DNA of 43,763 nt from an uncultured Phycisphaeraceae bacterium (GTDB lineage Bacteria > Planctomycetota > Phycisphaerae > Phycisphaerales > UBA1924). The notes beneath the pieces are model-generated. The model saw only the letters and a list, made by a program, of their open reading frames with translations. It made no database searches and was not told the origin of the DNA. Both the position numbers and the translations under genes were made by a program. Where the stretch lies: the NCBI GenBank assembly GCA_964533405.1, contig CAZHKB010000001.1:1-43763 (forward strand). The letters are read 5' to 3'. Shown piece by piece: positions 755 to 29,333 of the stretch. Positions within the stretch are counted from its first letter, which is position 1; the number at the start of each line of letters is the position of its first letter.

Positions 755-2494
755 TCAACAACCAGTCGAGAACAATGTCAGGTAGTAGAAGAAGTCGTCG
801 TTGTTGAGCACACCGTTGGGGATGCCGTAGCCGGGCTGGCCGGGGACCGCGCCGGTGGTCAGGTCGGCCACCGCGAGGTTGCCAGCGGCGAACTGGGAGA
901 GGTAGTAGAAGAAGTCGTCGTTGTTCAGCGTGCCGTCTGGCACGCCGTAGCCCGGCTGGCCCGGGATCGCGCCCGTGGTCAGGTCGGGTCGGCATGGGGT
1001 GCCGATCTGGAAGCTGCTGACGCTCTGGTCCTGGCCCGTGTTGTTCTGGGCGTCGCGTGCGACGACGCGGAGGCGGGCCTGCGAGGTTGAGGGCTGGGCC
1101 AGGGGCAGCACCCAGTCGAACGAGCCGTCGTCGGCGGTGTTGCTGGCGATTGTGTTGGGCCAGGTGGCGCCCGCATCGGTGGAGAGCAGAATGTCCACGC
1201 CGGTGGTCCCGTTGTCGTCGTCCGTGGACCATGTGATGGCGACGCTCGAGCCCTGGTTCACCTGGCCGCCGTCGCGCAGCGTGCGGAGGAACGCGGTGGG
1301 GTTGGCCCCGCCCGCGGGCGACGGCACGTGCATGGCGATGCAGTGGAACACGCCGGCGGACTGGGCGATCAACTGCCCGTTGAGCTGGCGGGTCGTGTAT
1401 CCCGGGAGCGCGGCCTGCCAGACCGCCAGCGCCTGCGCGTTGTAGGCCGCGGCGGTGGCGTTTGTGTAGGTCGGGACGACGTTCAAGTTGTTGCACATGA
1501 GCACGTTGGTGAAGGTGTAGTGGACGCCGCCGACGGCGACGGCCGGGATGCGGTGGACCGTCCACCCTAGCGAGGCCAGCAGCGTGGCGGCCCCGTCGCA
1601 GATCACGTCCTGCGTCGAGCCCGCGTTCTGCGGCCAGTCGGAGATGACCACGCCCTTGTCGGCGTAGACCTGCATCCACATGTCGATGTGCTGGGTGAGG
1701 TCGACGCTGGTCGGGAACGGGGTGAAGAGGGTGGTGTCGACGTTCTGGTAGTCGTTCCAGTGCTGGACGATGGTCGCCTCGGGCACGCCGGGGTTCTCGT
1801 TGTTGATCAGGCGGGTGGCGAAGGACTCGCCGTTGCCCGAGAGGTGGTAGTTGCCCCCGCCGTGGATGAGGGGGATGTCGTAGCGGGCGTGGTTTTTGAG
1901 GACGGCGAAGTCGGTGGGCATGACGTTGTCGAGGGGGCGTGGGCGGTTGTAGACGTGGTCGATGATGGCGCGGACCTGGTTGCCGGCGGGGCCCTCGTAG
2001 ACGTAGCGCGGGCCGTAATCGCGGATCCAGACGGAGTTGAGGGTGAACTGGCGGAAGACGACGCGGGACATGTTGGCGCCGGCGTTGGTGAGGGTGGTGG
2101 TGGCGCTGGTCTGGACGGCCGGGCTGCTGACGTAGACGTAGGCGCGGGCGTTGCCGTCGGTGGTGACCCAGGTGATGAGGCTGGTGAGGCTGGCGGTGAA
2201 GGACATCCAGGAGAAGCAGATGCCGTCGGTGGGCTCATACTCGCCGGGGCAGCGGACGGGTCCGGCGGGGATGCCGGGAATGTCGGTGGGCGTGACGGCG
2301 AGCGGATGCGTGCGGAGGTACTCGCGCTCGGCGTCTGTGAGATTGCGGGGCAGGTCGGGCTGCTCCCACGGGCGATCGGCGAAGGGGATCGGGGCGTCGG
2401 GCATGAGGCGCGCGGTTTGGCCAGCGGCGGAACCCGCGAGCAACGCAAAGACGATCAGGGCGGGCGCGGCGTGGGAGACGTGGATTGCGGTCAT
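755..2494 (-). CDS. agmatine deiminase / Porphyromonas-type peptidyl-arginine deiminase family protein with C-terminal GC-ended dockerin-like module
   Basis: ORF 755..2560. ATG 2494 follows GGGAG and gives the signal peptide ALIVFALLAGSAAG. Family motifs WIRDYGPRY, HGGGNYHLSGNG and GVFHCIAM are present. The C-terminal module is at 755..994. Confidence 0.8.
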   Translation of the reverse strand: MTAIHVSHAAPALIVFALLAGSAAGQTARLMPDAPIPFADRPWEQPDLPRNLTDAEREYLRTHPLAVTPTDIPGIPAGPVRCPGEYEPTDGICFSWMSFTASLTSLITWVTTDGNARAYVYVSSPAVQTSATTTLTNAGANMSRVVFRQFTLNSVWIRDYGPRYVYEGPAGNQVRAIIDHVYNRPRPLDNVMPTDFAVLKNHARYDIPLIHGGGNYHLSGNGESFATRLINNENPGVPEATIVQHWNDYQNVDTTLFTPFPTSVDLTQHIDMWMQVYADKGVVISDWPQNAGSTQDVICDGAATLLASLGWTVHRIPAVAVGGVHYTFTNVLMCNNLNVVPTYTNATAAAYNAQALAVWQAALPGYTTRQLNGQLIAQSAGVFHCIAMHVPSPAGGANPTAFLRTLRDGGQVNQGSSVAITWSTDDDNGTTGVDILLSTDAGATWPNTIASNTADDGSFDWVLPLAQPSTSQARLRVVARDAQNNTGQDQSVSSFQIGTPCRPDLTTGAIPGQPGYGVPDGTLNNDDFFYYLSQFAAGNLAVADLTTGAVPGQPGYGIPNGVLNNDDFFYYLTLFSTGC

Positions 2495-2618
2495 TGAGAC
2501 TCCCTGGAAATGCTGGACTGGAGTTTGAGGAGCATGTTCGGGACGATGTTCCGCCGACACGAGGCGGTGTGGGCGGACTTCGAGGCGACCATTCGATTAT
2601 GCAATCGGCTCGGTTGGT

Positions 2619-4079
2619 TCAGCACGCGGCCGCGAAGCTCGCCAGATAGTAGAAGAAATCATCATTGTTGAGAACTCCGTTTGGCACGCCGTAGCCAACG
2701 GTGCCCGGGATGGCGGTGGTGGTCAGGTCGGCCACCGTGAGGTTCCCGGCCGCGAACTGGGCAAGGTAGTAGAAAAAATCGTCGTTGTTCAGGAGGCCGT
2801 TGGGCACGCCGTAGCCGGCGGTGCCGGGGATGGCGGTGGTGGTCAGGTCCGGACGGCAGGGGGATGGAGCAAAGGTGACGAGTTGAATGCTGACGTCGCG
2901 TGTTTGGCCATCCGACTCCGCCTGAGTGGAGACGATCGCCTGGAGCACGGCACCGGGCGAGGCCGCGGGCGCGGCGACGAAGATGTCGACGCCGCCGGTC
3001 TGACCCGGCGCGAGCGGGCCGACGGAGAACAACGCGCCGACGATCGGCCACGCCTGGCGATCAACGCCCTCGACCTGGGCGATGTAGGTTTCGGTGCGCG
3101 GGCCGCGATTGTGGACGGTCAGGGCGAGGCCCACCACGCCGGTGGTTGGTGGCGGCGGTGCCACACTCAGGTCGAAGCGCGGGTCGATGGTGTTGACGAC
3201 TCCGGCGATGGCCGAGGCCTCGGGCCCCCAGACCTCGCGCCAGACGGACTGATCGTGGCGGAGGTGCAGGAGGAAGATCTGGACGAGAAGGCGGCGGGTG
3301 ACCTCGAGCTGTTGGGTCCGCGTGATGGAGCCGGAGTCGCAGAAGAGGAACCCGCCGTCGGTGAACCCGCAGTGGAACCCGCCGGTGATGACGGGCAACT
3401 GGCGCGGCCCGGCTAATGCGTTGTAGATGAGCTGCCCGTTGCCGCCGACCGGCACGATCGTGTCTTGGCTGCCAGCGATGAGAAAGACGGGCGCCTGGAT
3501 CGATGCTCCCGCGGCGATCGCGCTGGGATTGGTCTCAGCGGCGGCCAAGTTGGCGACGGCGTCAACGCGGGGATCGATCGCGGCGCAGAGCACGCTGGCA
3601 CCGCCGCCCATGGAATGGCCAGAAACACCGAGAGAGTTTACATCGACCACGCCCAGGAATCGCGAACCGGGTCGCGTCTGCTCGGAAATCATGAAGGTGA
3701 GGCTGTCGGACAGGTCCCGCCCATATTCGGCGTGGTTGGGTGAGAATCCGCTCTGCGAGTCGGTGGCAACAACAAGGAAACCCCACGTGGCCAGGTGGTC
3801 CAGCGTGCTGTAATACTGTGAGACTGCCTGAAGAAAACCGTGCCCAAAGGCGATCACTGAATACGGCCCGCCGGACGGATCCAGCGGAGTGCCGGAGCCC
3901 GGCGAGGTCGCGGGGTAGAACACTTGGGCGGTAAACGTCCCGCCGGTCTGGCGGTTGACGGTCACGGTGGTGCGACCGGGCTGGTGGGGGCCGGGCTGCG
4001 CGAAATCAGCCCGACACGCTTGGGAGATCAGCAGCACCCAGAGGGCCACAACAACGGGGACAACGGGGCGGTGGAACAC
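2619..4079 (-). CDS. alpha/beta hydrolase, cutinase/polyesterase-like (dienelactone-hydrolase fold), with GC-ended dockerin-like module
   Basis: ORF 2619..4133. The probable start is GTG 4079, with GGAG 8 nt upstream. A signal peptide is present. The Ser-Asp-His motifs [14 protein letters not shown] and GGFHCGF are present. The module is at 2619..2858. Confidence 0.75.
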
Positions 4080-4126
4080 GGTGCGATCTCCAGTTAGCGA
4101 TACGTCCCACCTCCCGCGACAGATGA

Positions 4127-5110
4127 TCAGCACCCTGCCGCGAAGATGGAAAGGTAGTAAAAGAAATCGTCGTTGTTGAGCACGCCGTTCGGGACGCCGT
4201 AGCCCGCGCTGCCGGGGATGGCGAATGTGGTGACGTCGGCCACCGCAAGGTTGCCGGCGGCGAACTGGGAGAGGAAGTAGAAGAAGTCATCGTTGTTCAG
4301 GATGCAGTCGGGCAGGCCGTAACCCGGCGAGCCGGGGACCGCGCCGTGGGTGATGTCGGGCAGACAGCGAGCGGGGACGGTGGAGCCGGGGTTGGTGAAC
4401 AAGAACTCGATATCGGTGTCGGTGAGAACGCGATTGTAAATCTGGATGTCGTCGAGCATGCCGTCCATGTACCCGACCTGGTTGCCGCCGACGACGAGCC
4501 CACCGATGATCAGCGGGGCGGCGGTGGTGGCGATGCTCACTGGGGTCTTGGTGCTTTCCGCGGGCGCGCCATCGACGTAGATGCGGATGAGCGAGGGGTT
4601 GCGTGTGACGACGATGTGGTGCCAGGTGTTGTCGTTGACACTGGTGGTGGAGATGGGTTCGGGCCCCGGGCCGTGGGAGGCGTAAAACCACGCCTTGCCG
4701 GGCGCGCCGTACGTGCCGCCGCTGCTGCTGGCTGCGACAAAGTACCCGGCGACAATGCCCGAGACGTGGCGGCCGATGAGGATGTGCTCCGGGCTTGTGA
4801 AGGTCGGGAGCTTCACCCAGAGCCCGATCGAGAACTTGGCGGACCCGACGAGTGGGAGCACGTTGCCGATTTGGATGCGCCCGTTGTTGGCGCGCGTGAG
4901 TTGGATCGCTCCGCCCGCGATTCCCGCGGCTGGCATGAACGTCGCGCTGCCGGTCGGTGTGCCGGGAAAGTTGCCCGCGCTGTCGGCAGCGATGGTGCCG
5001 GGCAGGGCAGGCTCATCAAACTTCCAGTGCGCGATTGGGCCGGTTGCGGCCTGGGCGGTGCCTGCGCCGGCCATCAGCAGTGCGGTCAAGACTCGCGTTC
5101 GGGCGGACAT
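4127..5110 (-). CDS. LamG/concanavalin-A-like lectin domain protein with GC-ended dockerin-like module
   Basis: ATG 5110 has a purine-rich RBS. The signal peptide ends AGTAQA. LamG-type strands [16 protein letters not shown] and IRIYVDG are present. The module is at 4127..4366. Confidence 0.75.
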
Positions 5111-5197
5111 AATGCGATTCCTTTCTCTCTCGATCTCTCTATCTCTTCGTCGCTTCGTCGCTGGCCGAAGCCCTCTCTCACGGTCGGGCTACCCATT

Positions 5198-5217
5198 CCC
5201 TGAGCTTGCGCTCAGGG
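5198..5217 (-). terminator. stem-loop just downstream of the stop at 5222 (no U-tract)
   Basis: CCCTGAGC-ttgc-GCTCAGGG. A homologous sequence lies at about 10384..10401. Confidence 0.3.
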
Positions 5218-5221
5218 CTCT

Positions 5222-6112
5222 TTAGCACCCTGCCGCGAAGATGGAAAGGTAGTAGAAGAAATCGTCGTTGTTGAGCACGCCGTTCGGGACGCCGTAGCCC
5301 GCGCTGCCGGGCACGGCGAATGTCGTGAGATCAGCCACGGCCAGATTCGCCGCGGCGAACTGGGAGAGGTAATAGAAAAAATCGTCGTTGTTGAGCACGC
5401 CGTTGGGCACGCCATAGCCCGCGCTGCCGGGCACCGCGAACGTGGTCAGGTCAGGGCGGCATGTGGGCTCGGGCGGGATCGTGCCGGCGGACCGGATGGT
5501 GGCGGTGATGGTCACGGTCACGTTGACGCCGCTGAGGGTCTGGGTCTGCGAGCCGCCCAGGGTGAAGGCGAGTGTGAGTGTGTTGCCCGCGACGGTCGCG
5601 GTGCCGCTGGCGTCGCCAGCGATCACGCCAGCGGTTGAGAGGTCGATGGGAACGGTCCCGACGGCGCTGAAGAGCAGACCGCTGCCGACGGCCTGGCCCG
5701 TGCCGGTGGCGATGGTTGGCAGGCCCGTGAGCGCGAACGCCCCGCCGGCCCCGAGTGGACCGGCGGGTGACACCGTGCCCGGGGTTGCGTACGACACCAC
5801 CACGTTGTTCAGCGTGATGTTCAGGCTCCCTAGGAACCCCCCGTTGAGCACGATCTGGAGATTGTCGTTCAAGATCACGTCGTAGTCGGCCATGGCGATG
5901 GTGGTCGGGGCGGCCCCGTTGTTGAGCACGGGATCGACGTGCCCGGAAAGCGGTGAGGTGTCTGTGCCGTTCAGCCCCAGGGCTGAAATCTGGACCGACA
6001 CGGTGGACGTGGCGGGGTTGATGTTGGTGACCACGGTCACGGCGGCCAAGGTGGGAAGGGCGCAGGAGCCCAGGGCCAGTGCCAACGCGAGTGGTGAGTG
6101 TGCGCGCATCAT
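5222..6112 (-). CDS. secreted hypothetical protein (Thr/Gly/Val-rich beta domain) with GC-ended dockerin-like module
   Basis: ORF 5222..6184. ATG 6112/6109 follows GGAGAGAGAG. The signal peptide is [17 protein letters not shown]. The module is at 5222..5461. Confidence 0.7.
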
Positions 6113-6256
6113 CTCTCTCTCCGGATCCAAGCCGCGGGTGGCCGGGGGGCCATCCATTGTCCCAGATTCCGCCCGCCGCACCAAGGCTAACCGAGCGCGG
6201 CGTCGTCCGTCAATCGATTCGGGGGCAATCGGCGGATGATCGGCCCGACCGAGAAC

Positions 6257-8563
6257 TCAGCAGCCCGCAATGAAGACGGTGAGGAAGTAGAAGAAATCGT
6301 CGTTGGTGAGCGTTCCGTTCGGAACTCCGTACCCGGGCGATCCCGCGATCGCGGTGGCGGTCATGTCTGCAATGGCAAGGTTGCCCGCGGTGAACTGGGC
6401 AAGGTAGTAGAAGAAGTCGTCGGTGTTCACGACGCCGTTGGGAACACCGTAGCCCGGCTGACCGGCGATCGCCGCGGTGGTCAGGTCGGGTCGGCAGGTA
6501 TTGTCGCGCCGGAGCATGGAAGCGGGGACGACCTGCTTGGCCAGGCCCGGCCCCTGGATGCGGAAGATCAGGCCAGCGCCGCCCTGGTTCTCGAAGAACT
6601 CGACGCGGAGAGGGTGGAGGCCGGCGGCGAGCGCGGCGGTGCCGGCGCGTTCGAGCATGCCGTGGAGCCCGTCGTTGGAGACGATCACGTCCGCGCCGAG
6701 GAGGGCGCGGGAGCCGTCGTCGGAATCGGTGTAGAGGGTGTAGAGGCCGCTGGAGGGGATGCTGAGGTAGCCCTGGTAGACCGCGCCGATTTCCTCGGCC
6801 CTGCCGCTGCCGCCGAAGTTCCCGCCGGTGCTGGGGATGTCAATGAGCGAGACCGTTCCGGTGAGATAGGGATTGATTAGCTCGAAGTCGGGCAGGACGC
6901 TCGCGCCGCCGACGAGTTCGTAGTACGACGCCTCCAGCCCTCCCACCACCGAGCCGGGATTGATGGGCTGGCGAAACTGGAGCAGCGAGACGGCGACGCC
7001 GGTGGCGGCGGGCGGTCGGCCCACGGCCTGCACGCTATAGGGGATGGTGTCCTGGCCCGAGACCCCGCCCAGCGGGGCGGTGTATCGCAGCAGGTCGCGC
7101 CCGCCTGGCCCGGCCCCGGTCAGCCGCTGGACGCTGCCGCCCAGCGCGGTCAGCGCACCAAACTGCGAGATGGTGACCGCGTCGCAGTTGACGGGGATGT
7201 CGTTGGCCAGCACATCCAGGTCGACGACCTGGCCCGAGGCGGTGCTGACCGCCTCGCCGACGGCGACCGTGCCCCCCGGCGCGTTGACGCAGGTGCCGGT
7301 CCCGGCGAGGAACGCGTCCATCTGGTTCTGGGTCTGGGGATGGAACGAGAGCAGGACATTGGCCATGCCGCCAGAACAGTTGTGGCAGTACGACATGATC
7401 GTGCCCAGATTCGCCCCGGCGCAGTTGCCCGCTCCGCACAGGTCGGGCGGGGGGACCAGGTCGTGCGTGTGCTGGGCGCCGAAGTTGTGACCCCACTCGT
7501 GGGCGACGACCATGACATCCCAGTTCGACCCGTGGTTGTTCTGGAGCGGATACGGGAACGAGCCGCCCAGGTTGCCCGAGACAGCGTACGCGAACGACCC
7601 GCACATGGCGCCGAGCCATGCGACCCCTCCGCCAAGCCCTCGCCCTGAGAGGAAGTGGGCCGCATCCCGCTGCACCGCGCCCATGTTGGAGTTCCAGTAT
7701 GCCCGGAACTGATCGAGCTGAGCGCCCGAACCGCTCGCGGTCCACGGGTCCGACGGATCTTCCCACAGACGCAGGTACTTGATCTGGATCCCCATGTTCA
7801 GGTCGCGCCGATAGATCTCGGAGACCGCCCCGACGAGGATGGCGGCGTAGTTGCCCGAGGCCTGGGTGTCGCCGCCGAACAGGGTGCCCGTGAACTCCCA
7901 GTCGGTCTCGATAGCGACCTCGGCCAGGCGGCAGTTGAAGTCCATGGGGGAAAAGCCGGTTGCGGCGGCCCGCTCGCCCGCGCCGGGCGGGATGAGCACG
8001 GTGCAGCCGATCTCGGCGGCGTTGAGCCACGCGGCCAGGTCGCCCTCCAGCGCCGCGATCACGAGCGGACCCGGCACGCCATCGGGCATCGGCCCGGTCG
8101 AGATGACCCACGTTCGCACGCCGTGGTCGGCGTTGGGCGCAGTCTGGATGTAGCCGTGGATGCCCGTGGGGCTCGAACCAAGGAACGCGATGGAGCCGGG
8201 ATCGCCGGCGATGTGCCCGCGGAGCAGTTGGATGTCGAGTCGGCCCACGTCGCGCTCGCCATTGAACCCGTCCACCACGACCCGGCCATCGGGCGACATG
8301 ATCTCGAACGTTTGCAGTGCAAGGGTCAACGTCTGCTCGCCGTCTGGCAGCGGGAGCGACAGAAAATCGGTCTGGCCGTGGCCGAAGCGGGCGGTGAGGG
8401 CGCCGTGGTCGAGGTCCAGGCCAACCCACGGTGTGGAAGTTGGTCGCGCGCCGATGACCAGACGGGCGGGTGTGTCACCGCCCAGTGCCGGCAGCGCCGT
8501 CAGACCAACGACCGCGACCAAGGCGCCCAGCACCGCCGGCGCACGGCGAACACCAATCCCCAT
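6257..8563 (-). CDS. reprolysin/metzincin-like zinc metalloprotease with PA14-like domain and GC-ended dockerin-like module
   Basis: [14 protein letters not shown] matches the HExxHxxGxxH zinc site. A PA14-like stretch is present ([18 protein letters not shown]...[13 protein letters not shown]). A signal peptide is present. The module is at 6257..6496. Confidence 0.8.
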
Positions 8564-8751
8564 GCCTCAACCCCTTCCGCCGGGCCCACCGCGAGACGGG
8601 CGCCAGCCTCACCCCATGAGACCCCGGGCTCCCGCCCTTGGTCGTCGAAATCAACGGCCCGGCCTGACCGACCGGGCCGCTCACATACGCATCGGCACCC
8701 TTCCAGGTGGCAGGCTTCCCGAGTTTGGGGAGCCTGAATCTGGATCGACGC

Positions 8752-10185
8752 TCAGGCCGGGCAGCCCTGGGCGAAGATGGAGAGATAGAAGAAGAAGTCG
8801 TCGTTGTTGATGATTCCGTTCGGAACGCCGTATCCGGGCTGGCCCGGAACCGCGCCGGTGGTCAGGTCGGCGACCGCGAGGTTCCCGGCGGCGAACTGGG
8901 ACAGATAGTAGAAGAAGTCGTCGTTGTTGAGCACGCCGTTGGGCTGGCCATACCCGGGGACGCCCGGAACCGCGCCGCTGGTCAGGTCGGCGACGGAGCA
9001 GCGGACTGCGATGATCTTCCAGAGCTGGCCTGAGTTCTGGTCGGTGTAGTACATCTCGCCCGCGGCGTCCTCGCCGAACGACGTCAGGTTGTCGCCCATG
9101 TCAAACAGCGGGGTGCTGGGGATCGGAGCGGCCTGGGGGCCGGCGGGCAGGGTCCAGATCTGGCCCGAGCAGTAGTCGCCGAAGACGTACTTGCCGGCCA
9201 GGCGCGGGATGAGGTTGCCCCGGTAGACATAGCCGCCGGTGATCGCGCAACCGAGGCTGGTCGCATACTCGTGGATCGGGATGGTGAGGCCCGGAGAGAA
9301 GGGCGTGCAGCCGGACAGGCCTGTGGAGTGGTTGCCCTCCATGCAACGCCAGCCGAAGTTGAGGCCGCTCGCGCCCGCAGGTGCGAAGTCGATCTCCTCC
9401 CACGAGCCCTGCCCGACATCGCCGATGTACATGTCGCCGGTGGCGCGATCGAAGGAGTTGCGCCAGGGATTGCGCAGGCCGGTGTGCCAGATCTCGTCGG
9501 CGCCCGCGTTGCCGAGGGCGGCGTAGGGATTCCCGGCCGGGATCGCGTACTGCCGGCCCGGGTCCATGGCGTTGACGTTGATGCGGAGGATCTTGCCGAG
9601 CAGGAGCGTGTTGTTCTGAGCGCGGTTGCCCGGGTCGAAGCCGTCGCCCCCGTCGCCGGAGGAGATGTAGAGCATGCCGTCGGGTCCGAAGGCGATCCAC
9701 CCGCCGTTGTGGTTGGCGAAGGGCTGCGTCACGCTCAGGACGACTCGGCGTGTTGCGGTGTCCACGGAGTTGGACGTGGCCGGGTCGCCCAGCACGCGAT
9801 ACTCGGCCAGGGTGGTCGCACCGTTGCCCGCGCCGGTGACGTGGTAGATGTAGAGCAGTCCGTTGGTCTGGTAGTTGGGGTGGAAGGCAAGTCCGAGCAG
9901 ACCCTGCTCGCTGCCGGTGGTCGTGCCGCCGGTGGTGAGCGCGTCCACGTCGAGGAAGGGGGTGGCGACGACCGCGTTGTTCAGGACGATGCGGATGAAG
10001 CCCTGCTTCTCGATCACGAAGAGCCGCCCGGTGGTGTCGCCGGGGGCAAAGGTGACCCAGATTGGCCGTGCAAGGCCTGCGGTGACGAGCTGGCCTTGGG
10101 CGATCTGGGCGTCCACCCGGGTTGCGGCGCCGGCCGCGACGATGAGCCCCCCCGCCAGGGCGAGGCTGGTGATTCCGATCTTCAT
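8752..10185 (-). CDS. PQQ-dependent sugar (glucose/sorbosone) dehydrogenase family beta-propeller with GC-ended dockerin-like module
   Basis: ATG 10185 follows GGAGGGA. A signal peptide is present. Motifs [31 protein letters not shown] and GLRNPWR are present. The module is at 8752..9000 and ends GCPA. Confidence 0.8.
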
Positions 10186-10255
10186 TTCGATCCCTCCGTG
10201 TCACTCCCCCCACAGACGCCTGGTCCGAGAACCCCGGCGTGGGTTGCTGTGGCGT

Positions 10256-10284
10256 AGTGTCTGGCCCGGAGGGGTGCAATGCAA
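10256..10284 (-). promoter_or_regulatory. candidate sigma70-type promoter for the PQQ dehydrogenase gene
   Basis: The minus strand reads TTGCAT-N17-GACACT, about 70 nt upstream of ATG 10185. Confidence 0.3.
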
Positions 10285-10401
10285 GAGAACCGTGTGTGGA
10301 CCGGGTGAAAATCCGAAAAACGGGCCTGATCGGACGGACCGGCGGCGGGGAGGGCCGGCGGAAGGGGCCGAGGCGGGTCTTGAGCCTGCGCTCCGGGCTC
10401 C

Positions 10402-10550
10402 CTAGCAGGCCGCTAAAAAACTCCTTGACGATCTCACTCGGACCCTGCTTCGCGTCCCAAGACCCCTCCGGATTCGCTGGAATCGAGGGTCGAGGTGCCC
10501 CAACGGACGTGATTGGAGGGGTGCGGAAGAGTTCTTTAGCGGCCTGCTAG
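10402..10550. mobile_element. 141-bp MITE-like insertion (10406..10546) with 12-bp perfect TIRs flanked by CTAG direct repeats
   Basis: The TIRs are CAGGCCGCTAAA (10406..10417) and TTTAGCGGCCTG (10535..10546). CTAG occurs at 10402..10405 and 10547..10550, and the right CTAG contains the TAG stop of the peroxidase gene. No transposase is encoded. Confidence 0.45.
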
Positions 10551-12472
10551 CACCCCGCGCTGAAGAGTGAGAGGTAGTAGAAGAAGTCGTCGTTGGTGGT
10601 TACGCCGTTGGCTTGGCCATAGCCCGGGCTGCCCGGGATTGCGTTCGTGGTGAGGTCGGAGCGTGCGTCGGAGACGGCGAAGAGAGTGAGGTAGAAGAAG
10701 AAGTCGTCGTTGTTGAGCACGCCGTTCGGATAGCCGTGCCCCGGCTGGCCTGGGACCGCGCCGGTGGTGAGGTCGGCGGGGCAGGTGGAGGGGCAACCGC
10801 CGCGGGGACAGAAGAAGGTCAGGCGCATGACGGGGGAGAGGGCTTGGCCGCCGGCGGCCGCGGCATCGGTCACCCACCACTGGACATACACAACCTGCCC
10901 CGCGTGGTGGCTGCTCGCGTCGAGGGGCCAGTGGTGCGTCGCCACCCCCGCGCCCGCGCCCAGGCCCGCGAGCGTGACGGGTCCGATCAGCGACTCGGGC
11001 ACCACGCGCCCGGCGACCGGCGGCTGGCTGGAGATCGCCAGGCTCGCGCTCGCCCCGCCCAGGGCATCGCCGAGACCGATCTTGAAGTCGGCGTTGCCGA
11101 TCATGGCGGGGGCGCGGGTGATGATGGTGGGCACGAGGCCGCCCGTGCCGGGCGTGCCAACGGTAACCTCGAGAGGCAACAGCTCGCCGCGATCCCGGTA
11201 CAGGTCGGCGCGATCGAACGGGAACGTCTCCGCCTGCACGCGGGCGTCGGTCAGCCCGTTCTGGATGAAGTCAACCACCGCCACGATCTGGTTTGGTGGG
11301 ATCTGGACCTGCGGCATCAGGGGGTCCTGATTGGCCGGGAACTGGGGAGCGGCCCCCGGAACCCGAGCGTAGAACCGCACGACGTCGGTCAGGTTGGTGA
11401 ACTGCCCGTTGTGCATGAACTGCGTCCGCAGCCCGACGTTTCGCAGGGAGGGGACGCGGAAACGCCCTGCATCCTGGGGCAGGCCCGTCACGTTCTGGCG
11501 CCCGCGATCCTCGTTGAGCGGGCGCAGCCCGATGTTGCGGAACGTGTTGTTGGTGAACTGCTGGGGCGTGTGGCACAGGTTGCAGCGCCCGGGGCCGTTG
11601 AACGTGTTCATGCCCAGAGTCTGCTGGGCGGTGAGCGAGGCGGGGATGCCGGCTTGGAACCTGTCCCAGGGCGTCTGATCGGGGATGAGCGTGCGCTCAA
11701 AGGTCGCGATCGCGAATGCGATGCGCTCGGCGGTGATCTCGGGCGTGCCGAATGCCCGTCGGAACAGCTCCGGATACGAGGGATTGCCCGACAACCCTTG
11801 CTCGACATCCACCTGCAGACCGGTGGCGAGCGCGAGCGGGCGGGCCGAGGCGAGTTTCGCGGCGACCTGGTTCCAGTCGCGCCCGAGGTGCGCCATCTCC
11901 ACGTCGTTGAGCACCGGCGCGATGGCCTGGCTCTCCAGCCCACCGCCGAGCGGGATCGAGACGGCGCCGGTCTGGGGATTGATGAACTGCGAGCGGGCCC
12001 GCCCGTCCCAGAACAGGTCGTCGCCATACGCGGCCATGATGTGCGAGTTGGTGCTGCGGGCGGTCACCTGGGTCTGCACCCCGAAGGATGCGCTGCGGAG
12101 GTAGTCGCCCATGGTCGTGGTGAGCGTCACGCCCGGCGAGCCGAAACCGTCGTCGGGCGTGTTGAAGACCAGGTCGGCGCCCGGGTGGCGCGCCCGGCGC
12201 GAGTCGCCGCCGCCCACGGCCGGCACATGGCAGGTGGCGCAGGCCGTGGTGTTGTCCATCGACAACTGCTCGTCGAAGAACAAGACCTTGCCCAGCAGGC
12301 GTTTGGACTCACTGAACAAGTTCTGGGGGGGAGTCGGCGGCGGCGGCAGCGCCGCCGGCGCGAGCGACAGCCACGCCACCGCCGCCGCCCCCGTGAACGC
12401 CAGCGGCAGGCCCGCCGCGGTCAGAAACCGCGCGGCACCCACCCGTCCACGACCGTTTGCCGACTTTCCCAT
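10547..12472 (-). CDS. di-heme cytochrome c peroxidase / MauG family protein with GC-ended dockerin-like module
   Basis: ORF 10547..12568. ATG 12472 follows GAGGG and gives a signal peptide. Two heme-c sites, CATCH and CNLCH, are present. The module is at 10547..10783. Confidence 0.8.
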
Positions 12473-12683
12473 TCCCGGACCCTCAGTGCGCCTGTCCAAC
12501 GTAGCAGATGGCACGCGATTGCACGAGCCAATCGCGGCCCGGGAGGTGAGCGTTTGCGAACCGCCCACCCGGCCGACCTGGCGAATGAAAACCGGCCACC
12601 CGCCAGTTCGGGCGGGTGGGCGGTCGCTTGGGAGCGACGGGGGTTCTCCGCATCCCCGCGCGTCATCGCCCGACGTGCCGGGT

Positions 12684-13187
12684 TCAGCAGCCGGCCGCGA
12701 AGATCAAGATGTAGAAGAAGAAATCGTCGTTGTTCAGCACGCCGTTGCCCGTCCCATATCCCGGGGCGCCGGGGCGGATCGCGGTGTCCACGTCCAGCAC
12801 CGTGCCGGTGCAGCCGTCGGCGGCCATCTGCAGCGACCACTGATAGGGCCCGAGGTCGGTGTAGACGTTGAGCAGCAGGAAGCACGAGGTGCCAGCAAAG
12901 TCGCTGGGCACCCACCAGGACGCGGTGTAGCGCCACTGGCCTGAGTTCACGCCGGTGCGGGTGCGGACGGCGTCGGCGCCCAGTCCAATCTCCATCGAGT
13001 TCGGCGCGCTGCGGGCGTGCGCGGTCGAGATGATGCCGAAGGCGGCCAGGGAGTTGTCCCAGCCCTTCCAACCGCCGGTCCCGTTGGGCCCGCCGGGCGA
13101 GTAGGAGTCGAAGTTGTCCAACCACTCGGCGCAGGCCACGGTGGGCACCAGCGTGAGCAGCGCGAGAGCGGCGCAAGAGCGCTTCAT
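12684..13187 (-). CDS. small secreted hypothetical protein with a single (half) GC-ended dockerin-like repeat
   Basis: ORF 12684..13385. ATG 13187 gives the signal peptide [20 protein letters not shown]. The C-terminus is [29 protein letters not shown] (12684..12812). Confidence 0.7.
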
Positions 13188-13433
13188 GACAGAATCCCCA
13201 GGCAGACGCGCCACGCAAAGCCCAACCCGGCCCCTCGGAAAGCACGCCACGAGGCCGCCCTCCGCGCGATGCGCGCGAACCCCGGTAACCATGCTGCGGA
13301 ACCTGGGCGCGATGTCAACGCTAGATTCAGGAACTTGCGACGCGATACGGACGATCTTCGAACATCTCCGCAACTCGTTGCACAAAGGCGAGATGTGGAC
13401 CGATTAGGCCCACACCCCGAGGTGATGCTGGGG

Positions 13434-14153
13434 TCAGTCAGGGGCATGTCCGCGGGGGCGTCGGCGCGCACGCGTCGCACCCCAGAGCAGCACGAGGCAA
13501 GCGGAGGTCGGTGTCGGGACCAGGTTGGCCTCCGTCCATTCAATCGCCTGTTCGTGCTCAAGCTCCGAGGAGTCCCAGTTGAACACGAGCCAGATCGGGT
13601 CGGAAGCCGCGATCGAAGTGTCCGATGCCCAGATCTCCAGTTCGAGCAGGTAGATGCCGGGGGAGTTGGTGGTCAGCTCATAGAAGGGGTGCTCGTCGAA
13701 CCCGCCCTGCTGATGCACGCCCGCGTCGGAGACGACCGCGAAGCCCGGCACGATCACGTCGATCAGCGGCGTCAGCACCTGATTCGTGCCGGGGCCAGAG
13801 TCGTAAAGACGCATGCGCTGGCTGGCAGGCCCGCTCAGAAAGTCGTCGCCGTTCCACGCCCGCAGCGCGCTGCGGATGTTGAACCCCAGCGAGGTGCCGG
13901 GAGCGAAGCCTTGCCCGACGTTGTCGAACGGCCCGAGCCAGCCCGGCTCGTCGGTGAACACGAGCCCGCCCTGCTCGGCGAGCTCGCCCGCGAAGACCCG
14001 TTCGGGGAACTCGAACGAGTTCGGATACAGCGAGTGATCGCCCAACCCGGTCACGACCTTGTTGTTGATGTTGGTGATGGCGATGTCGCCCTCGTGGGCC
14101 AGGGCGAGGGGCGCGAGCGACGCGACGATCAAGATGAACGGACGACTATGCAT
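13434..14153 (-). CDS. secreted hypothetical protein with PEP-CTERM-like C-terminal anchor (paralog of 14338..15222)
   Basis: ORF 13434..14417, but its first 88 codons overlap the neighbour's 3' end in another frame. ATG 14153 gives the signal peptide MHSRPFILIVASLAPLALA. The tail is VPTP-TSACLVLLWGA-TRARRRPR. Confidence 0.7.
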   Translation of the reverse strand: MHSRPFILIVASLAPLALAHEGDIAITNINNKVVTGLGDHSLYPNSFEFPERVFAGELAEQGGLVFTDEPGWLGPFDNVGQGFAPGTSLGFNIRSALRAWNGDDFLSGPASQRMRLYDSGPGTNQVLTPLIDVIVPGFAVVSDAGVHQQGGFDEHPFYELTTNSPGIYLLELEIWASDTSIAASDPIWLVFNWDSSELEHEQAIEWTEANLVPTPTSACLVLLWGATRARRRPRGHAPD

Positions 14154-14337
14154 GGTGATCTCTCTCATTAAAATGGGATGGATGGTGATTCGGCAAACCA
14201 GATACCTGGGTGGGACGCCCGTGGCTCTGAGCGGCCATGCTCGAACCGACACTGCAATCGACGACCCTCCTTTCTCCCGGTCTTTAGCGTGGTCGCGCAG
14301 CGCCTCGACCACGCCACGCCCAAGCACCAACAGCGCT

Positions 14338-15222
14338 TCAGCACCCCGCCGCGAACAGGGCGAGGTAGTAGAAGAAGTCGTCGTTGTTGAGGACCCCGTT
14401 GGGTACGCCGTAACCAACCGAGCCGGGGATGGCCGTCGTGGTCGTGTCGGCCACCGCGAGATTGCCGGCCGCGAACTGCGAGAGGTAGTAGAAGAAGTCG
14501 TCGTTGTTGAGCACGCCGTTGGGCGTGCCGTACCCCGGCTGGCCCGGCACGGCCACGGTGGTCAGATCGGGCGGGCACGGGTTGGCGCTGATCGGCAGAT
14601 TCGCCGTTGCCCAGGCCAGCGCGACATTGAACGCGCCCACATCGCCGCCCTGCCTGAACACGATCCAGAACGGATCGGACGGGCCGATCGCTGCGCTGTT
14701 GCTCCAGAGCCGCAGGTTGAGCAGGTACGCGCCGTCCGAAGCCGGGGCGGTAAGCGTGAAGCCGAAGTGCTTGTGGTACTCGCCGCTGGCCGAGACGCTG
14801 GCCGACAAGCCCGGCACGACCGCTGCGGCGGGCGGGGTTGAGATCGGGCCGAGCACGCCGAAGCGGATGTCGATCCGCTCGGCGGGAATGGTGCCGAAGT
14901 TCGCACCGTTCCACTTGCGCAGCGCGTCGAGGATGTCAAAGCCGATCTGCGAGCTCGGTGGGAACACGCCCGGGCCCGAGTCAAAGCCCGGATCGTTGGT
15001 GAAGTTGGGCTGCTCGCCGAACACCCCGGCGTGGACGAGCACGGGGAAGTCGGGGAGTGATCCGCCAACCGGGAACGCGCCGGTCTGGATGCGGGCGGAC
15101 GTGCCCGACGGCCGGATGATGACGTCGCCGACGTGCTGCGCCAGCGTCGGCGGCGCGATCAGGAGTACGAACGCAGAAGAGACCAGAGCAGAGCGCGAGA
15201 GGTCGAGAACTGGTGTGGACAT
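14338..15222 (-). CDS. secreted hypothetical protein with GC-ended dockerin-like module (paralog of 13434..14153)
   Basis: ORF 14338..15324. ATG 15222 gives a signal peptide ending PPTLAQ. The N-terminal domain aligns by eye with the preceding gene (H-x-GD-[IV], ...LR-x-WNG-x-[DN]F, DP-[FI]W-[IL]VF). The module is at 14338..14577. Confidence 0.75.
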
Positions 15223-15339
15223 TGGATGCTCCTCACTCGGCCAGAATGGGGCCGATTGGGATCGTGGTGAAAGACTGAGTGAACTCGTGTGGACGCCCGA
15301 ACCGTCCGGCTCAAACAGCCGCACGCGTCGGTGGCCTTT

Positions 15340-16197
15340 CTAATGCGCCAAATCGGGATCAAAGTTGTTGTCATCAAACGAGCGATACACCTGCCTGAAC
15401 CGCTGCACCCCGGCGTGCCCATCCAGAAAGCCATACGTCGCCATCGCCTCGAACGAGCGCGGTTTGCCGCCCCAGGCCGCCACATCCATCTCATCGCTCG
15501 CCACGCCCGGTTCATTGCCCGGCCCGGCCGAGGGCCAGTCCTCAACATGAACATGGTCGGCCTTGGCGAACGCGCTGATGGTGTTGCCCGGTGGCCGAGG
15601 CTGGCCCTGGGTCATCATGAGAAAGTGGACGGTGGCCGCGGGCGAGGGGATATGCTCGATCGCGTCGTATCGGGCACGCCGCATGAACGCCGGGTCGGGC
15701 TGCTTCGACCGCGTCGTGTAGTTGTTCAGTCCGTACGACGTCCACCGCGCCAGCGCGCTCTCGGGCGGGTTGTTCGAGGGATCGCCGTCGGTCAGCAGGT
15801 CGAGAGCCTGAGCGAGCGTCAGGCCGGGGTCGTTCCCGCCCTGAGAGATCGGCCACGCGGGGCTGGCATCGCCCGGCGAGCGAAGCGCGATGCTTGCCCC
15901 GTAACTCGCCGCCAGCACCACCGGCCACGCCCGCGAGGCATCGCCCACGCCGCCATGATCCAGACCGGCGTCGACGAAATATCCTCGGTTGTCGTCGTAG
16001 TACATGGTGTGCGCCAGCTCAAGCTGTCGCACGTTGGACAGGCACACCGCCGAGCGCGCCGCTTGCCTGGCGTGCGACAGCGAAGGGAGCGCAATCGCCA
16101 GCACCACCCCCACCACCGCGATCACCACGAGCAGCTCGACAAGCGTGAAGCCACGACGCCGCGGGCGCACTGCCCGCGCGAAGCCGGAACGGGCCAT
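15340..16197 (-). CDS. DUF1559 / H-X9-DG protein with prepilin-type N-terminal cleavage/methylation domain (type II pseudopilin-like)
   Basis: ATG 16197. The N-terminus GFTLVELLVVIAVVGVVLAIALPSL is a prepilin signature. FLDGHAGV lies near the C-terminus. Confidence 0.8.
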   Translation of the reverse strand: MARSGFARAVRPRRRGFTLVELLVVIAVVGVVLAIALPSLSHARQAARSAVCLSNVRQLELAHTMYYDDNRGYFVDAGLDHGGVGDASRAWPVVLAASYGASIALRSPGDASPAWPISQGGNDPGLTLAQALDLLTDGDPSNNPPESALARWTSYGLNNYTTRSKQPDPAFMRRARYDAIEHIPSPAATVHFLMMTQGQPRPPGNTISAFAKADHVHVEDWPSAGPGNEPGVASDEMDVAAWGGKPRSFEAMATYGFLDGHAGVQRFRQVYRSFDDNNFDPDLAH

Positions 16198-16413
16198 GGC
16201 AGGTTCCTCATCGGCGCGCCATCGCGCCAGGTGCGGTCTGAAAGTCACGATGGAGAGCGGATACGACGCGCGGGGCGTCCCACGTCACCAACGCCCACAC
16301 GCGGGGGCGTGATGCCAAGAACCCAGGCCCGCGCCGGCAACCAACCTCATCACGCGTCCGCACCGCCCCGCACCCAGGCCACCCGGCCCGCGCGGAACAA
16401 CGATCGGCGGGGC

Positions 16414-16896
16414 TCACGACCCGAGAGGGGGTCCGCGTGATCTGGACTCCAGTGGCCCGTCCATGCACACCGCCCGATCGGCGCGACACACCGATCGCCA
16501 CACCCCGAACCCGATTGCCGGCCCCTCGGGAACCGCCGGCGGCGCCGACGCAACCCTCGCGCGCGCGATCAGCTCGCACAGCCCGCACCCGTCGTGGTCG
16601 CCCGGGTCGTGCGCGGGGAGCGCGGGCCCGCCCCCCTCATCCTGCACGTCGAGGGCCGCGCTGGAATCGCCCGCCTGCCAGGCGTGGGCGCGCCCGCCCT
16701 GGAGGGCGTGCTCGGCGGCATGCGACTGACCCGCCCGGCACGCCCGCGGCAGATCCCCGCGGTACACATGCCCGCTCGCCTGATGATGCACGCGCTCGTG
16801 CCACGCGGACGCGAAGACCGGCAGCAGCAACGAGAGCGACACCACCACCGCCGTCCACGCGGCGTAGGTCGATCGAACTGGACCGCTCCGGGTCAT
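16414..16896 (-). CDS. small membrane-anchored His/Cys-rich hypothetical protein
   Basis: ATG 16896. There is one N-terminal TM segment (AWTAVVVSLSLLLPVFASAW), a His-rich stretch and a CGLC motif. The opposing ORF 16437..17096 is Arg-rich junk. No family was recognised with confidence. Confidence 0.4.
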   Translation of the reverse strand: MTRSGPVRSTYAAWTAVVVSLSLLLPVFASAWHERVHHQASGHVYRGDLPRACRAGQSHAAEHALQGGRAHAWQAGDSSAALDVQDEGGGPALPAHDPGDHDGCGLCELIARARVASAPPAVPEGPAIGFGVWRSVCRADRAVCMDGPLESRSRGPPLGS

Positions 16897-17065
16897 CGCT
16901 GGGACCAGTATACCGCCACGCCGGGCGTTGTCAAGAATCGAATCTCAATAAGAGAACGGGCGATCGCTCCGCCGCGGGCACGCCCGTCCCTGGGCGTGCT
17001 GTGGGCGCACCCGCGCCCGACGATGGGCGTGCCACGCGCTGCTCGCCAACCGCGTGCGCTTCCTC

Positions 17066-18505
17066 TCAGCACCCGGCGGCGAAGATCGACAGATAGAAGA
17101 AGAAATCGTCGTTGTTCATCGTGCCGTTCGGGGCGCCATAGCCCGGCGAGCCGGGGATGGCGGAGTTGGTCATGTCGCAGACGGCGAGGTTGCCGGCGGC
17201 GAACTGCGAGAGGTAGTAGAAGAAGTCGTCGTTGTTGAGGATGGAGTTGGGCGTGCCGTAGCCAGGGGAGGCGGGGATGGCCGAGGTGGTGAGGTCCGGT
17301 CGGCAGGTTGGCGCGTTGCACGCGCCGGGCTGGCCGCAGACGGTGCCCGCGCCGCCCCAGACGCCCTGCAGCTGCTGGCAGGTGCTCTGGTTCAGGTTCG
17401 CGCAGGAGCCGAGCGACGGGATGCAGCAGGAGCCGGTGGGAGCGGTGCAGGTGACGAACTGGCAAAGGCTGCCTTCGCCCTGGTAGGTGCCGCCAGCGCT
17501 GATGCAGTTGCCCTGAGACATCTCCTGGCATCCGCCGCTGCTGAGGCAACACGCCCCAAAGCCCGGCAGGCAGTTGACGCGGGTCCATGTGGTGCGCATG
17601 ACCCAGTCGCCGGTGGGACGGCAGAAGAAACTGAGGTTGGAGAACCGGGACCAACCGCCGTTGGGCGGGCAGCCGAACGGGCCACAGTTCAGGCCGTTGA
17701 GCCAGTTGTTTCCGGACTGCTGGAGCCCGCTGCCGGCGGGCGGCGCGGGATCGGTGGTCGGGAAAATGTTGAGGTTCGAGGGCGAACCCGAGACGCACGG
17801 GTTGGCCGAGGGGGCGTTGAACTTGTCGATGCGGAACGCGATGCTGAACTGGCCCGTTCCGCTCGGGTTCTGCACGATGATCTGCTCGGGATCGCTGGGA
17901 TCAATCTGGAAAACCAGGTGCAGGCCCTGCGTCCCGGGCCCGAGGCGTGCGTGCGGAAGCAGCTCATCATCGCTCGACCACTCGGCGATCAGCGTGCCGG
18001 TCTGCGGCGTGCCCTCGTAGACCAGCACGCTCCACTCGGCGACGCACTGGACCGTCGCGTTGGTCGTCGCCCAGAACGTCTCGATGGTGTCGAGGCGCAG
18101 CGGGAAGTGGTCCGCGGGCAGGGTGTACGTCGCGGCCTGGCTCTCACCCTGCGAGAAACCCATCTGCAGCGTGTACGACCCGGGCTGGAAGTTCTTGTCG
18201 GTGTGGGCCGACAAGCCGGTACAGGCCTCGGGCACCGGATTGCCGGGCGCGCCCGGCGCGTGGTTCAGCGCCCATTCGACCTGGTTGTAGTTGGTGCCCA
18301 GTGATGAGACGTACATGTGCTTGATCGAGTCGATCCGGACCGTCTGCTCGAGCGTGGCCCGCTGCAGCGCGGACTCGACCGGCGGGGCGACCGGGGCGGG
18401 CCCGGCCGTCGGGCCGGGCTGCGCCAGAGCGACCTGCGTGAGCAGACCGATGCCAAGGGCCACGCTCGCGCGGGCCACGACGTCCATGCCTCGCCCCATC
18501 TTCAT
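17066..18505 (-). CDS. secreted hypothetical protein with tandem Cys-rich modules and GC-ended dockerin-like module
   Basis: ORF 17066..18655. ATG 18505 follows AAAGGGA and gives a signal peptide ending VALAQP. Two ~37-aa Cys-rich repeats lie upstream of the module at 17066..17305. Confidence 0.7.
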
Positions 18506-18677
18506 GTCGCGATCCCTTTCGGCTCCCTGGATCGACGACGGCCCGGCCCCAACAGCCCTGCCGCCGTCCCAGAGTGCTTCCCCCATTGTCCAGATACGCG
18601 GCCCGGATGCAAGCGGGTCCGGCCCATCCACGCCCGATAGCGTGGCGGGCCTCACCCTTCAAGGGCGGCTTGCCGGC

Positions 18678-19418: not shown

Positions 19419-19761
19419 GGGTGGTCTCTGTGCAGGCGGACACGGGATCGCCGCACGCCCGACAACGGGGCGCGGCGAGAGCAGGGTAACGCCTTGCTCG
19501 CCTCGACGATTGCCCGTCGCCGCACGCCGCTTCCCGTGAGCGACTAAAGTTCCGTGAAGCCGCCAAGCCCGCCGATCTGGATGCCCAGCCGGAACCAACC
19601 CGGCCCCGGAGCGTCACACACCGGGCGCTCGGCGGCCCTCGTGCGGTGCTCTTGGGGGGTTTGTCGGATTTTGGGGGCAGGATCGGGCCAGCCGCGCGCC
19701 GGGAAGGGCCGCACGCCGCGGCAGGCCGCACTCGCCCCGAAGCCCGTACACTGGACCAACG

Positions 19762-23764: not shown

Positions 23765-24207
23765 GCCCCCAGGACGATTGGCCCGAATCACTGGCCGCAT
23801 CGAGAAACTCCTGCGGTCGGGCTCGGCGTGGTCAAGGTGACGCGCCGGCCTTGTCGGTTGCGGGGAAGAACTGTGGGATTCGTGTGCATTTGAGCGTCGG
23901 AGGCTTGGCAAGGGCTAAACTCCGCCGCTTCGACGCTCCGTGTCGGCCCTTGCGGGCGCGGCTGGAGGTCCACCGGGGTTCCGGCGGACCAAGGCGACTC
24001 CGGATGAGACGCCCCAGTTCACGCGCTCCATCGTGTGCCCGCCTCGCCTGGGTTCAGCCTGTCATCAGGTCTGTGCTCAGAAAGTCGGGACGCATCATAC
24101 CCGCCGAGTTGCACGCCGGTCACATAGACCCCCATGCAAACCGGCGACGGACTTGATGACGATGGCAAGGGCGGTGGACGGCACGGGCGACAAGAAGGAG
24201 CATGCTC

Positions 24208-29036: not shown

Positions 29037-29333
29037 GTGCGTCTCTCCCGCCAAGGAGCGTGTCCGCTCCAAAGATGAAAGTACTGTAACACAATCGTTC
29101 TGGGACGCAATGCCCAACCCTCATGGTGGACCAGACTTCACGCGACGGTCGGGTATGAGTTGCCTGGCGATTCCGACCGACTCACCCGGCCAAGGCCGTA
29201 CCTGACATCAACAGGACGCGCGAGATGCACTGTTATCGGACTTTTGGTACACCAACTTTTTTCCAATCCATCCTCGTCCGAGAGCAGGACTGGGCACTCT
29301 GCAAACTGTTTTCCGGAATTACCGGTCCATGCC

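Follow-up and report, generated by a model that had tools for sequence, protein, structure and literature searches.

The window discussed here, 43,763 nucleotides of DNA from an uncultured Phycisphaeraceae bacterium (GenBank assembly GCA_964533405.1, contig CAZHKB010000001.1, positions 1 to 43,763 of the forward strand; G+C content 66-73%), contains 13 minus-strand genes in an unbroken row (755-18655), most of which code for proteins that end in the same short C-terminal module. The genes lie at 755, 2619, 4127, 5222, 6257, 8752, 10547, 12684, 13434, 14338, 15340, 16414 and 17066 (lower coordinate of each, all on the minus strand), and ten of these 13 consecutive open reading frames (ORFs) carry the tail. 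The tails of the array are GC-type dockerin domains, a lineage-specific C-terminal tag on exported proteins of a clade of the Phycisphaerales. An eleventh tail-bearing gene, coding for an S8 subtilase, lies beyond the array at 27444-29117 (minus strand).

The tagged genes and their products are listed below. Bit scores refer to the Pfam families named and, for the tail, to the NCBIfam model NF041540; "signal peptide" denotes an N-terminus resembling a Sec signal peptide, which every one of the tagged proteins has.

Gene 1: 755..2494, minus strand; signal peptide, PAD_porph-type deiminase (PF04371, 85.2 bits), Ig-like domain, tail at 755-994 (87.7 bits).
Gene 2: 2619..4079, minus strand; signal peptide, PETase/dienelactone-hydrolase-like alpha/beta esterase (PF12740, 58.9 bits), tail at 2619-2858 (79.3 bits).
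Gene 3: 4127..5110, minus strand; signal peptide, Laminin_G_3 (LamG) domain (PF13385, 86.3 bits), tail at 4127-4366 (80.7 bits).
Gene 4: 5222..6112, minus strand; signal peptide, N-terminal domain without a Pfam family, tail at 5222-5461 (83.2 bits).
Gene 5: 6257..8563, minus strand; signal peptide, M12B reprolysin-like metalloprotease (PF13688, 78.5 bits), Big_9, PA14 (PF07691, 41.9 bits), tail at 6257-6496 (82.4 bits).
Gene 6: 8752..10185, minus strand; signal peptide, glucose/sorbosone dehydrogenase (GSDH, a pyrroloquinoline quinone (PQQ)-type beta-propeller; PF07995, 125.3 bits), tail at 8752-9000, ending GCPA (85.2 bits).
Gene 7: 10547..12472, minus strand; signal peptide, di-haem cytochrome c peroxidase/MauG-like protein (CCP_MauG; PF03150, 131.6 bits), tail at 10547-10783 (75.9 bits).
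Gene 8: 12684..13187, minus strand; small secreted protein, single-repeat tail at 12684-12812 (27.5 bits).
Gene 10: 14338..15222, minus strand; signal peptide, N-terminal domain of no known family, tail at 14338-14577 (85.5 bits).
Gene 13: 17066..18505, minus strand; signal peptide, Cys-rich N-terminal domain of no known family, tail at 17066-17305 (77.7 bits).
Eleventh member: 27444..29117 (ORF limits), minus strand; S8 subtilase (mycosin-like S8 domain, E = 1.4e-56), short 55-residue tail at 27444-27617, ending GCTP (49.2 bits).

The window's own proteins are also present on metagenome contigs of the Joint Genome Institute (JGI), and the start codons of the tagged proteins are those of the independent JGI calls on identical contigs. 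Thus gene 1 starts at the ATG at ORF residue 23, as in the JGI call of 579 amino acids; the calls for genes 2 and 7 are of 486 and 641 amino acids. Gene 13 has three candidate ATG starts, at 18505, 18499 and 18487.

A preliminary description of this DNA, made without database searches, had given the ten-in-13 count, the coordinates of the ten modules, their duplication and the nature of several N-terminal domains, and in these respects it stands: the coordinates are as it gave them, each including the stop codon; nine tails consist of two 35-residue repeats and one of a single repeat; Pfam confirms every N-terminal domain that was named, and four proteins are without a family. Its statement that the tail stops at Gly-Cys is right for most of the tails but not for those of gene 6, which runs on to GCPA, and gene 2, which ends AAC. 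Over all 11 tails the endings are GC in eight and AC, GCPA and GCTP in one each. A DNA repeat finder independently recovered the 120-nt unit as its family D1, in 19 copies (two in each of nine tails and one in the tenth), and both boundary cysteines are invariant in the alignment of the 11 tails and in 82 relatives. Together with the E-values on NF041540 given below, these observations establish that the array's tails are not a chance resemblance.

Family and distribution

NF041540 (dockerin_GC, "GC-type dockerin domain-anchored protein") is a 67-position profile with a curated cut-off of 29 bits. The preliminary description had suggested a label of this kind, correctly as it turns out: the nine double tails score 75.9-87.7 bits (E-values 5e-25 to 2e-21), and 10 of the 11 tails in the window pass the threshold, the single-repeat tail falling just under it. 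NCBI applies the same name to relatives in metagenome-assembled genomes (MAGs) of Phycisphaerales, MEZ6233772.1 being an example. The window proteins therefore add members to a family already catalogued by NCBI and are not a new kind of system. A full-text search of the literature turned up no paper containing "GC-type dockerin" or otherwise naming the module, which agrees with the preliminary description, to whose author no demonstrated receptor or function was known.

The extent of the family was gauged from a library of representative proteins and a scan of genomes; a search with the tail alone gave 39 short fragments, which were used for names. Against 1.84 billion representatives, a profile of the 11 tails gives E ≤ 1e-3 for 1428 clusters (50% identity) and E ≤ 1e-10 for 600 of them. 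The module is overwhelmingly terminal: in about 145 of the 150 best representatives the match ends no more than two residues from the C-terminus, and an exact GC ending is found in 153 of 161 collected tail ORFs. Apart from two apparent frameshift or read-through sequences, the only representatives among the best 150 with a non-terminal module are P0055, P0109 and P0091, cupredoxin-like proteins in which the GC module is followed by a conserved extension of ~55-75 residues with a CC motif.

When 185,579 species genomes were scanned, the best 80 of 117 confirmed matches all came from two MAGs that carry the long form of the tail, Phycisphaeraceae HK-STAS-PLAN-5 (JACKHA01) and Phycisphaerales AC1.149 (JAWKTE01). 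In 68 loci of these two genomes at least 44 and 105 distinct ORFs, respectively, bear the tail, and runs of 5-7 on one strand are frequent. These counts and runs indicate that arrays like that of the window are normal for the clade; part of the array itself is syntenic in AC1.149 (locus L046). Judged by the N-termini of its bearers, the tag appears to mark a large part of the proteins that the clade exports by Sec.

What the tag is attached to is diverse. In the window the cargo comprises the deiminase, the esterase, LamG, the M12B protease, the PQQ-type dehydrogenase, the di-haem peroxidase and the S8 protease. In 82 tagged relatives it includes S8, M14, M10 and trypsin-like peptidases, FG-GAP, Kelch and BNR propellers, and Ig, LamG and esterase domains. 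These relatives yield only 36 Pfam families in total, each in at most three members, which means that many of them have no recognised domain. The preliminary description had contrasted this cargo with that of cellulosomes; Pfam bears it out, finding no glycoside hydrolase or carbohydrate-binding-module domain in the window's tagged proteins, and there is no glycoside hydrolase among 25 listed of the 36 families in the relatives.

Anatomy of the tail

The module begins with a Cys and two or three further residues, continues with repeat 1 (35 residues), a 5-residue linker and repeat 2 (35 residues), and closes with a Cys and the stop codon. Each repeat is a loop of the dockerin/EF-hand type followed by an aromatic helix (DDFFYYLxxFAAG), in which the FFYY cluster is invariant. 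Candidate Ca ligands are conserved by position along the loop: D at 1, T at 3, N or D at 5, G at 6, N at 9 and D at 12. An insertion of 12 residues interrupts this loop in the ten array tails. The two repeats differ consistently at position 34, which is Q or E in repeat 1 and I or L in repeat 2.

The S8 subtilase, whose C-terminus reads CPADFNRDGRLTSEDFFLFLEFYVAKDPRADLVWPLGVWNGDDFLKYTDRYAAGCTP, provides the key to this arrangement. Its tail has 12 residues fewer than the others in repeat 1 and 11 fewer in repeat 2, and its repeat 1 (DFNRDGRLTSED) contains an intact canonical EF-hand/dockerin loop, D-x-N-x-D-G-x-L-x-x-x-D. MAFFT alignment of single repeats with the dockerins of CelS and CelD (the former checked against PDB 2MTE and 1DAQ, the latter taken from that same search) puts GAIPGxPGYGxP, the insertion, after loop position 4 and before position 5; the remainder lines up with the CelS and CelD repeats. 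A database relative, P0039, combines both kinds of loop: one is uninterrupted (DLDGDRDVDSDD), the other has the insertion. The array tails are thus dockerin/EF-hand-type loop-helix pairs, both loops of which contain an insertion specific to the lineage.

The number of repeats also varies: P0040 has three and P0184 four, the insertion of P0184 being acidic (GSSDPNxPxYGxP) instead of Pro/Gly-rich. For the single-repeat gene 8, BLASTP comparison with its AC1.149 homologue (L008:10431-11423), which has a full double tail and ~120 extra residues including repeat 1, places the missing segment across the distal N-terminal domain and repeat 1. By this alignment, gene 8 is an internally deleted copy; in AC1.149 the gene has its double tail in full. 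The deleted form is found, identical, on at least four metagenome contigs.

Across unrelated cargo the tails are 65-85% identical in protein and 71-82% in nucleotide sequence, and the codons for identical residues are the same in only 52-73% of cases. Low codon identity argues that the tails are kept alike by selection on the protein and not by recent copying. Recent gene conversion or cassette copying was accordingly rejected as the source of the likeness of the tails, on nucleotide and codon divergence and on the existence elsewhere of orthologues with their own tails. Orthologues are known for genes 4 and 13 in loci L052 and L009 (~70% identity in both cases) and for gene 10 in L046 (7811-8710; 63% identity, tail kept).

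The two repeats of one protein resemble each other more than they resemble the repeats of other proteins (mean identity 0.812 versus 0.776; 116 tails from the window and loci L006-L073), a value reached in none of 5000 shuffles. The excess lies at positions 8, 10, 11 and 13, within the insertion, reaching for example 0.88 where 0.64 is expected. Possible causes of such agreement are that the two insertions touch, that symmetry is selected for, or that conversion takes place within the gene.

A proposed docking tag and the search for its partner

To the most likely reading, that the tails are a disulfide-clamped Ca-loop docking tag, which holds exported proteins on a shared envelope receptor, we assign about an even chance. 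The proteins would be exported by Sec, as their N-terminal sequences suggest. The two invariant cysteines would then pair as a disulfide, clamping the ends of the module; both loops would bind Ca2+; and the nearly symmetric two-helix module would dock non-covalently on one shared envelope receptor. Proteases, esterases, oxidoreductases and binding proteins would in this way be kept at the surface, in a cellulosome-like arrangement with non-carbohydrate cargo. The docking logic is one that we infer, by analogy with the cellulosome. The case for a single shared partner is that one tag, conserved at almost every residue, is found on many exported proteins.

Both forms of the tail are modelled with confidence, and the short one may have a dockerin-like fold. 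An AlphaFold2 model of the 79-residue tail has a mean predicted local-distance difference test score (pLDDT) of 93.3 and a predicted template-modelling score (pTM) of 0.82, with helices (25-36, 40-43 and 65-77) and, within each of the two insertions, isolated beta-bridges. A 59-residue construct of the S8 form (the 57-residue tail and two preceding residues) is modelled with two helices at pLDDT 86.3. When this short form was compared by Foldseek with 350,542 PDB chains, four of the five best matches were dockerins (4uyp_B, 2vn5_B, 2vn5_D and 2ozn_B; TM-scores of 0.52-0.64, root-mean-square deviations of 2.1-3.8 Å), the remaining places being taken by EF-hand domains of calpain. The module is dockerin-like in its loop motif and probably so in its fold, but this evidence does not place it in the Pfam dockerin family.

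Several results weigh against the docking reading, and they concern both the dockerin likeness and the partner. Neither the long nor the short tails match the Pfam dockerin family PF00404 in a search with a nominal E-value limit of 10, which, since the HMMER filters drop most matches above E ~0.1, means that there is none better than roughly that value. The tail profile and P0039 likewise find no match among PDB sequences. (The only links to solved structures that came up, with an S-layer protein (E = 0.36) and caltractin (E = 1), were insignificant and were set aside.) In an hhalign comparison with classical dockerin only the 14-column Ca loop aligns (pairwise P = 6e-4). The Foldseek E-values of the S8 matches, all between 2 and 10 (2.4-7.5 for the dockerins), are not significant, and the long-form 79-residue model retrieves no dockerin and nothing significant from the PDB. 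Nor is Ca2+ binding assured, given Thr at loop position 3 and the interruption of the loop. On the side of the partner, the preliminary description had noted that the window holds no cohesin, scaffoldin or sorting enzyme, and Pfam scans of its main ORFs, cohesin (PF00963) included, find none. A narrow hidden Markov model, made from three cohesins of CipA that a PDB search had supplied, has no match, at low power, among the 7008 ORFs of related loci totalling 1.3 Mb. No tail-less, scaffoldin-like protein with repeated cohesins was seen in those loci when long ORFs were screened for internal repeats and the best ten scanned with Pfam; the repeat-bearing ORFs that emerged code for ribosomal protein S1, UvrA, DUF4350 proteins and CARDB/Ig-like proteins.

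Two orthologous and tail-less proteins of the CARDB/Ig-like kind (L018 5707-8118 and L026 5511-8117) are candidate beta-sandwich partners. They have three CARDB domains and an Ig-like (DUF1573/ASH) domain. In both MAGs the gene lies directly upstream of a GC-tagged gene.

A related reading, which we regard as possible but doubtful, is that the GC module serves a cohesin-independent surface display on the scale of the proteome, through a new kind of receptor that may be a protein or a glycan. By means of the disulfide-clamped module, over 100 exported proteins in each genome would dock on it, redox enzymes, a deiminase and proteases among them. The lineage-specific 12-residue hairpin insertion would then be part of a new recognition surface.

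Untagged genes and surroundings of the array

Three genes of the array have no tail.

Gene 9: 13434..14153, minus strand; paralogue of the N-terminal domain of gene 10 (36-40% identity between paralogues by tblastn).
Gene 11: 15340..16248, minus strand; prepilin-type N-terminal cleavage/methylation motif (TIGR02532, 33 bits; PF07963, 37.8 bits).
Gene 12: 16414..16896, minus strand; small His/Cys-rich protein with an N-terminal hydrophobic segment, of no NCBIfam family.

Where its sibling has the GC tail, gene 9 has a hydrophobic stretch and then a cluster of Arg (VPTPTSACLVLLWGATRARRR), an end reminiscent of PEP-CTERM. No model matches at this end of the window copy; its orthologue in L046 (8766-9593, plus strand), with the ending VPAPGALALLAGAGLLSGRRRR, falls short of TIGR02595 (13.7 bits; cut-off 16). 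As a hint, genes 9 and 10 may show one C-terminal localisation module naturally exchanged for another, and a PEP-CTERM-like end in the place of a GC tail fits a role of the tail in surface localisation. Gene 11 has a syntenic copy in L046 (tblastn), where the counterparts of genes 11 and 12 lie side by side within 6205-7720. Gene 12 contains the motif CGLCELIA, and a His-Asp-rich ORF at the syntenic position of L046 (6205-6735) has CGLCDLIA, a shared CGLC[ED]LIA that was noted by eye and is unscored.

The surroundings of the array are ordinary and include genes for ExbB, a TolC-like protein (21743-23911), DUF885, ZnuA with an ABC ATPase, and a GT2 glycosyltransferase. The gene that adjoins the array (18678-19598, minus strand) codes for a protein with Gly-rich stretches and paired EF-hand-like loops (DANGDGKL..., DANTDGFIDRAE), whose Pfam EF-hand scores are under the gathering thresholds. 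A gene for tRNA-Ile(GAT) lies at 31706-31779 (plus strand), with a 168-nt direct repeat upstream of it (30101-30268 and 31057-31224; 70% identity). The cumulative GC skew rises across the minus-strand array to a maximum near 16-18 kb and then falls; the turn falls together with the end of the co-oriented gene block.

Alternative readings

A tail with no cohesin-like partner in sight may have a partner that is not a protein. Through its aromatic-rich helices it might bind a component of the envelope or of the substrate, such as polysaccharide, lipopolysaccharide (LPS), peptidoglycan or particle surfaces, or it might be only a folding or solubility module stabilised by Ca2+ and a disulfide. We consider this reading, in either form, unlikely. 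The invariant FFYY cluster of each repeat is an argument for it, as is the existence of orphans: many dockerin-like modules outside cellulosomes are without a known cohesin (Peer et al. 2009, as reported in PMC6461901). As a stabiliser, however, the module is conserved beyond need, nearly every residue being retained among over 100 paralogues per genome and between genomes, likely surface positions included. Against a non-protein ligand it counts that the dockerin fold is not known as one that binds carbohydrate. The tails might alternatively pair with each other, cross-linking the tagged proteins into a multi-enzyme coat that needs no scaffold. EF-hand-type units normally work in pairs, and the one-, three- and four-repeat variants (gene 8, P0040 and P0184) would suit such pairing, a single repeat needing a partner in trans; so would the residues that co-vary between the two insertions of one protein. 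But the double repeat is predicted, with high confidence, to form a closed intramolecular pair, and gene 8, internally deleted, may be decaying. Homotypic pairing is in our estimate very improbable.

That leaves the tail as a C-terminal secretion or sorting signal, read and possibly removed by a dedicated machine in the style of the type IX secretion system (T9SS) or of PEP-CTERM/exosortase. The strictly extreme C-terminal position speaks for such a signal, and so do the numbers, since at least 44-105 tagged proteins per sampled MAG are on a par with known sorting signals; within the array, a paralogue (gene 9) with a PEP-CTERM-like end and a prepilin-type gene (gene 11), syntenic in L046, point the same way. 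Yet the linkage to gene 11 may mean nothing, prepilin-like genes being very numerous in Planctomycetota, and the tail itself is built differently: it ends at GC with no transmembrane helix or basic cluster to follow, it is a confidently predicted helical domain of 55-79 residues with Ca-loop motifs, unlike the beta-sandwich of T9SS, and the window offers no candidate sorting enzyme. No T9SS, PEP-CTERM or LPXTG model of NCBIfam matches any of the ten tagged proteins (E ≤ 0.01), and these three signals were rejected as identities of the tail on that ground, together with its end at GC and its predicted helical fold. We hold a sorting signal of this general kind to be distinctly unlikely. The TolC-like gene prompted consideration of a signal for type I secretion (T1SS) of the repeats-in-toxin (RTX) kind, which was discarded on the Sec-type N-termini of the tagged proteins and because no RTX repeats were seen in the tails.

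Significance and comparison with known systems

Dockerin-like modules without a known partner are widespread outside cellulosomes. As a docking tag, the GC module would account for the retention of proteases, esterases and oxidoreductases at the surface of particle-attached Phycisphaerales, and it would represent one half of a new, small, disulfide-stabilised affinity pair. The question of the partner can be approached with a single recombinant module of 79 residues. To what was catalogued or described before, the present analysis adds an eleventh member, the anatomy of the insertion, evidence on the fold, the scale of the copy number, evidence against recent copying, and negative searches for the partner.

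Among C-terminal tags that unrelated secreted proteins share on the scale of a proteome, the GC tail is comparable with PEP-CTERM (exosortase), LPXTG (sortase) and the T9SS domain. It differs from all of these in having no transmembrane segment, basic tail, matching model or nearby sorting enzyme, and in being, by prediction, a folded helical module and not a signal-peptide-like anchor or a beta-sandwich. Substrates of T1SS/RTX have GGxGxD nonapeptide repeats and no N-terminal signal peptide; the tagged proteins have N-termini like Sec signal peptides, and no such repeats are visible in their tails. The closest catalogued entity is NF041540 itself, which the tails match directly, with the same C-terminal location and Gly-Cys ending, although the array tails have 79 residues and the S8 tail 55, against the 67 positions of the profile. 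NF041540 is an annotation rule, and no paper or experiment was found behind the word "anchored" in its name.

Cellulosomes are defined by carbohydrate-active cargo and a multi-cohesin scaffoldin, neither of which is seen for the GC-tailed proteins of the window and the sampled loci. Since no carbohydrate-active enzyme is found in the cargo of the window, the system is no cellulosome as the term is ordinarily used. With the type I dockerin of cellulosomes (PF00404; CelS 1DAQ/2MTE, Xyn10B 1OHZ_B) the GC tail, which may work in like manner, has these features in common: a duplicated loop-helix unit with nearly symmetric halves, the loop motif aDxN/TxD/NGxhNxxD, and a C-terminal location on diverse secreted enzymes. 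The differences are the interruption of the loop by 12 residues, the invariant Cys at both ends, and the aromatic helices (FFYYL), where clostridial dockerins have an L/K/R/Y pattern; the host of the GC tail is moreover of the Gram-negative type, its cargo lies outside the carbohydrate-active enzymes, and the searches gave no cohesin.

A related idea, that of a non-cellulosomal cohesin/dockerin assembly in Phycisphaerae, is already in print. The "planctosome" (Andrei et al. 2019, ISME J, PMC6461901) is a computational proposal in which cohesins and dockerins assemble M12B and M14 peptidases in freshwater Phycisphaerae. It rests on recognisable cohesin and dockerin domains in Nemodlikiaceae and on an anchor protein with a lamin-tail domain and P-domains (PMC6461901), whereas no cohesin or anchor protein was seen here, the GC tag is missed by the Pfam dockerin model, and the GC cargo extends well beyond peptidases. 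The two are alike in concerning Phycisphaerae and a proposed non-cellulosomal complex, and the peptidase classes of the planctosome also occur with a GC tail, the M12B reprolysin-like class in gene 5 and the M14 class among the tagged relatives.

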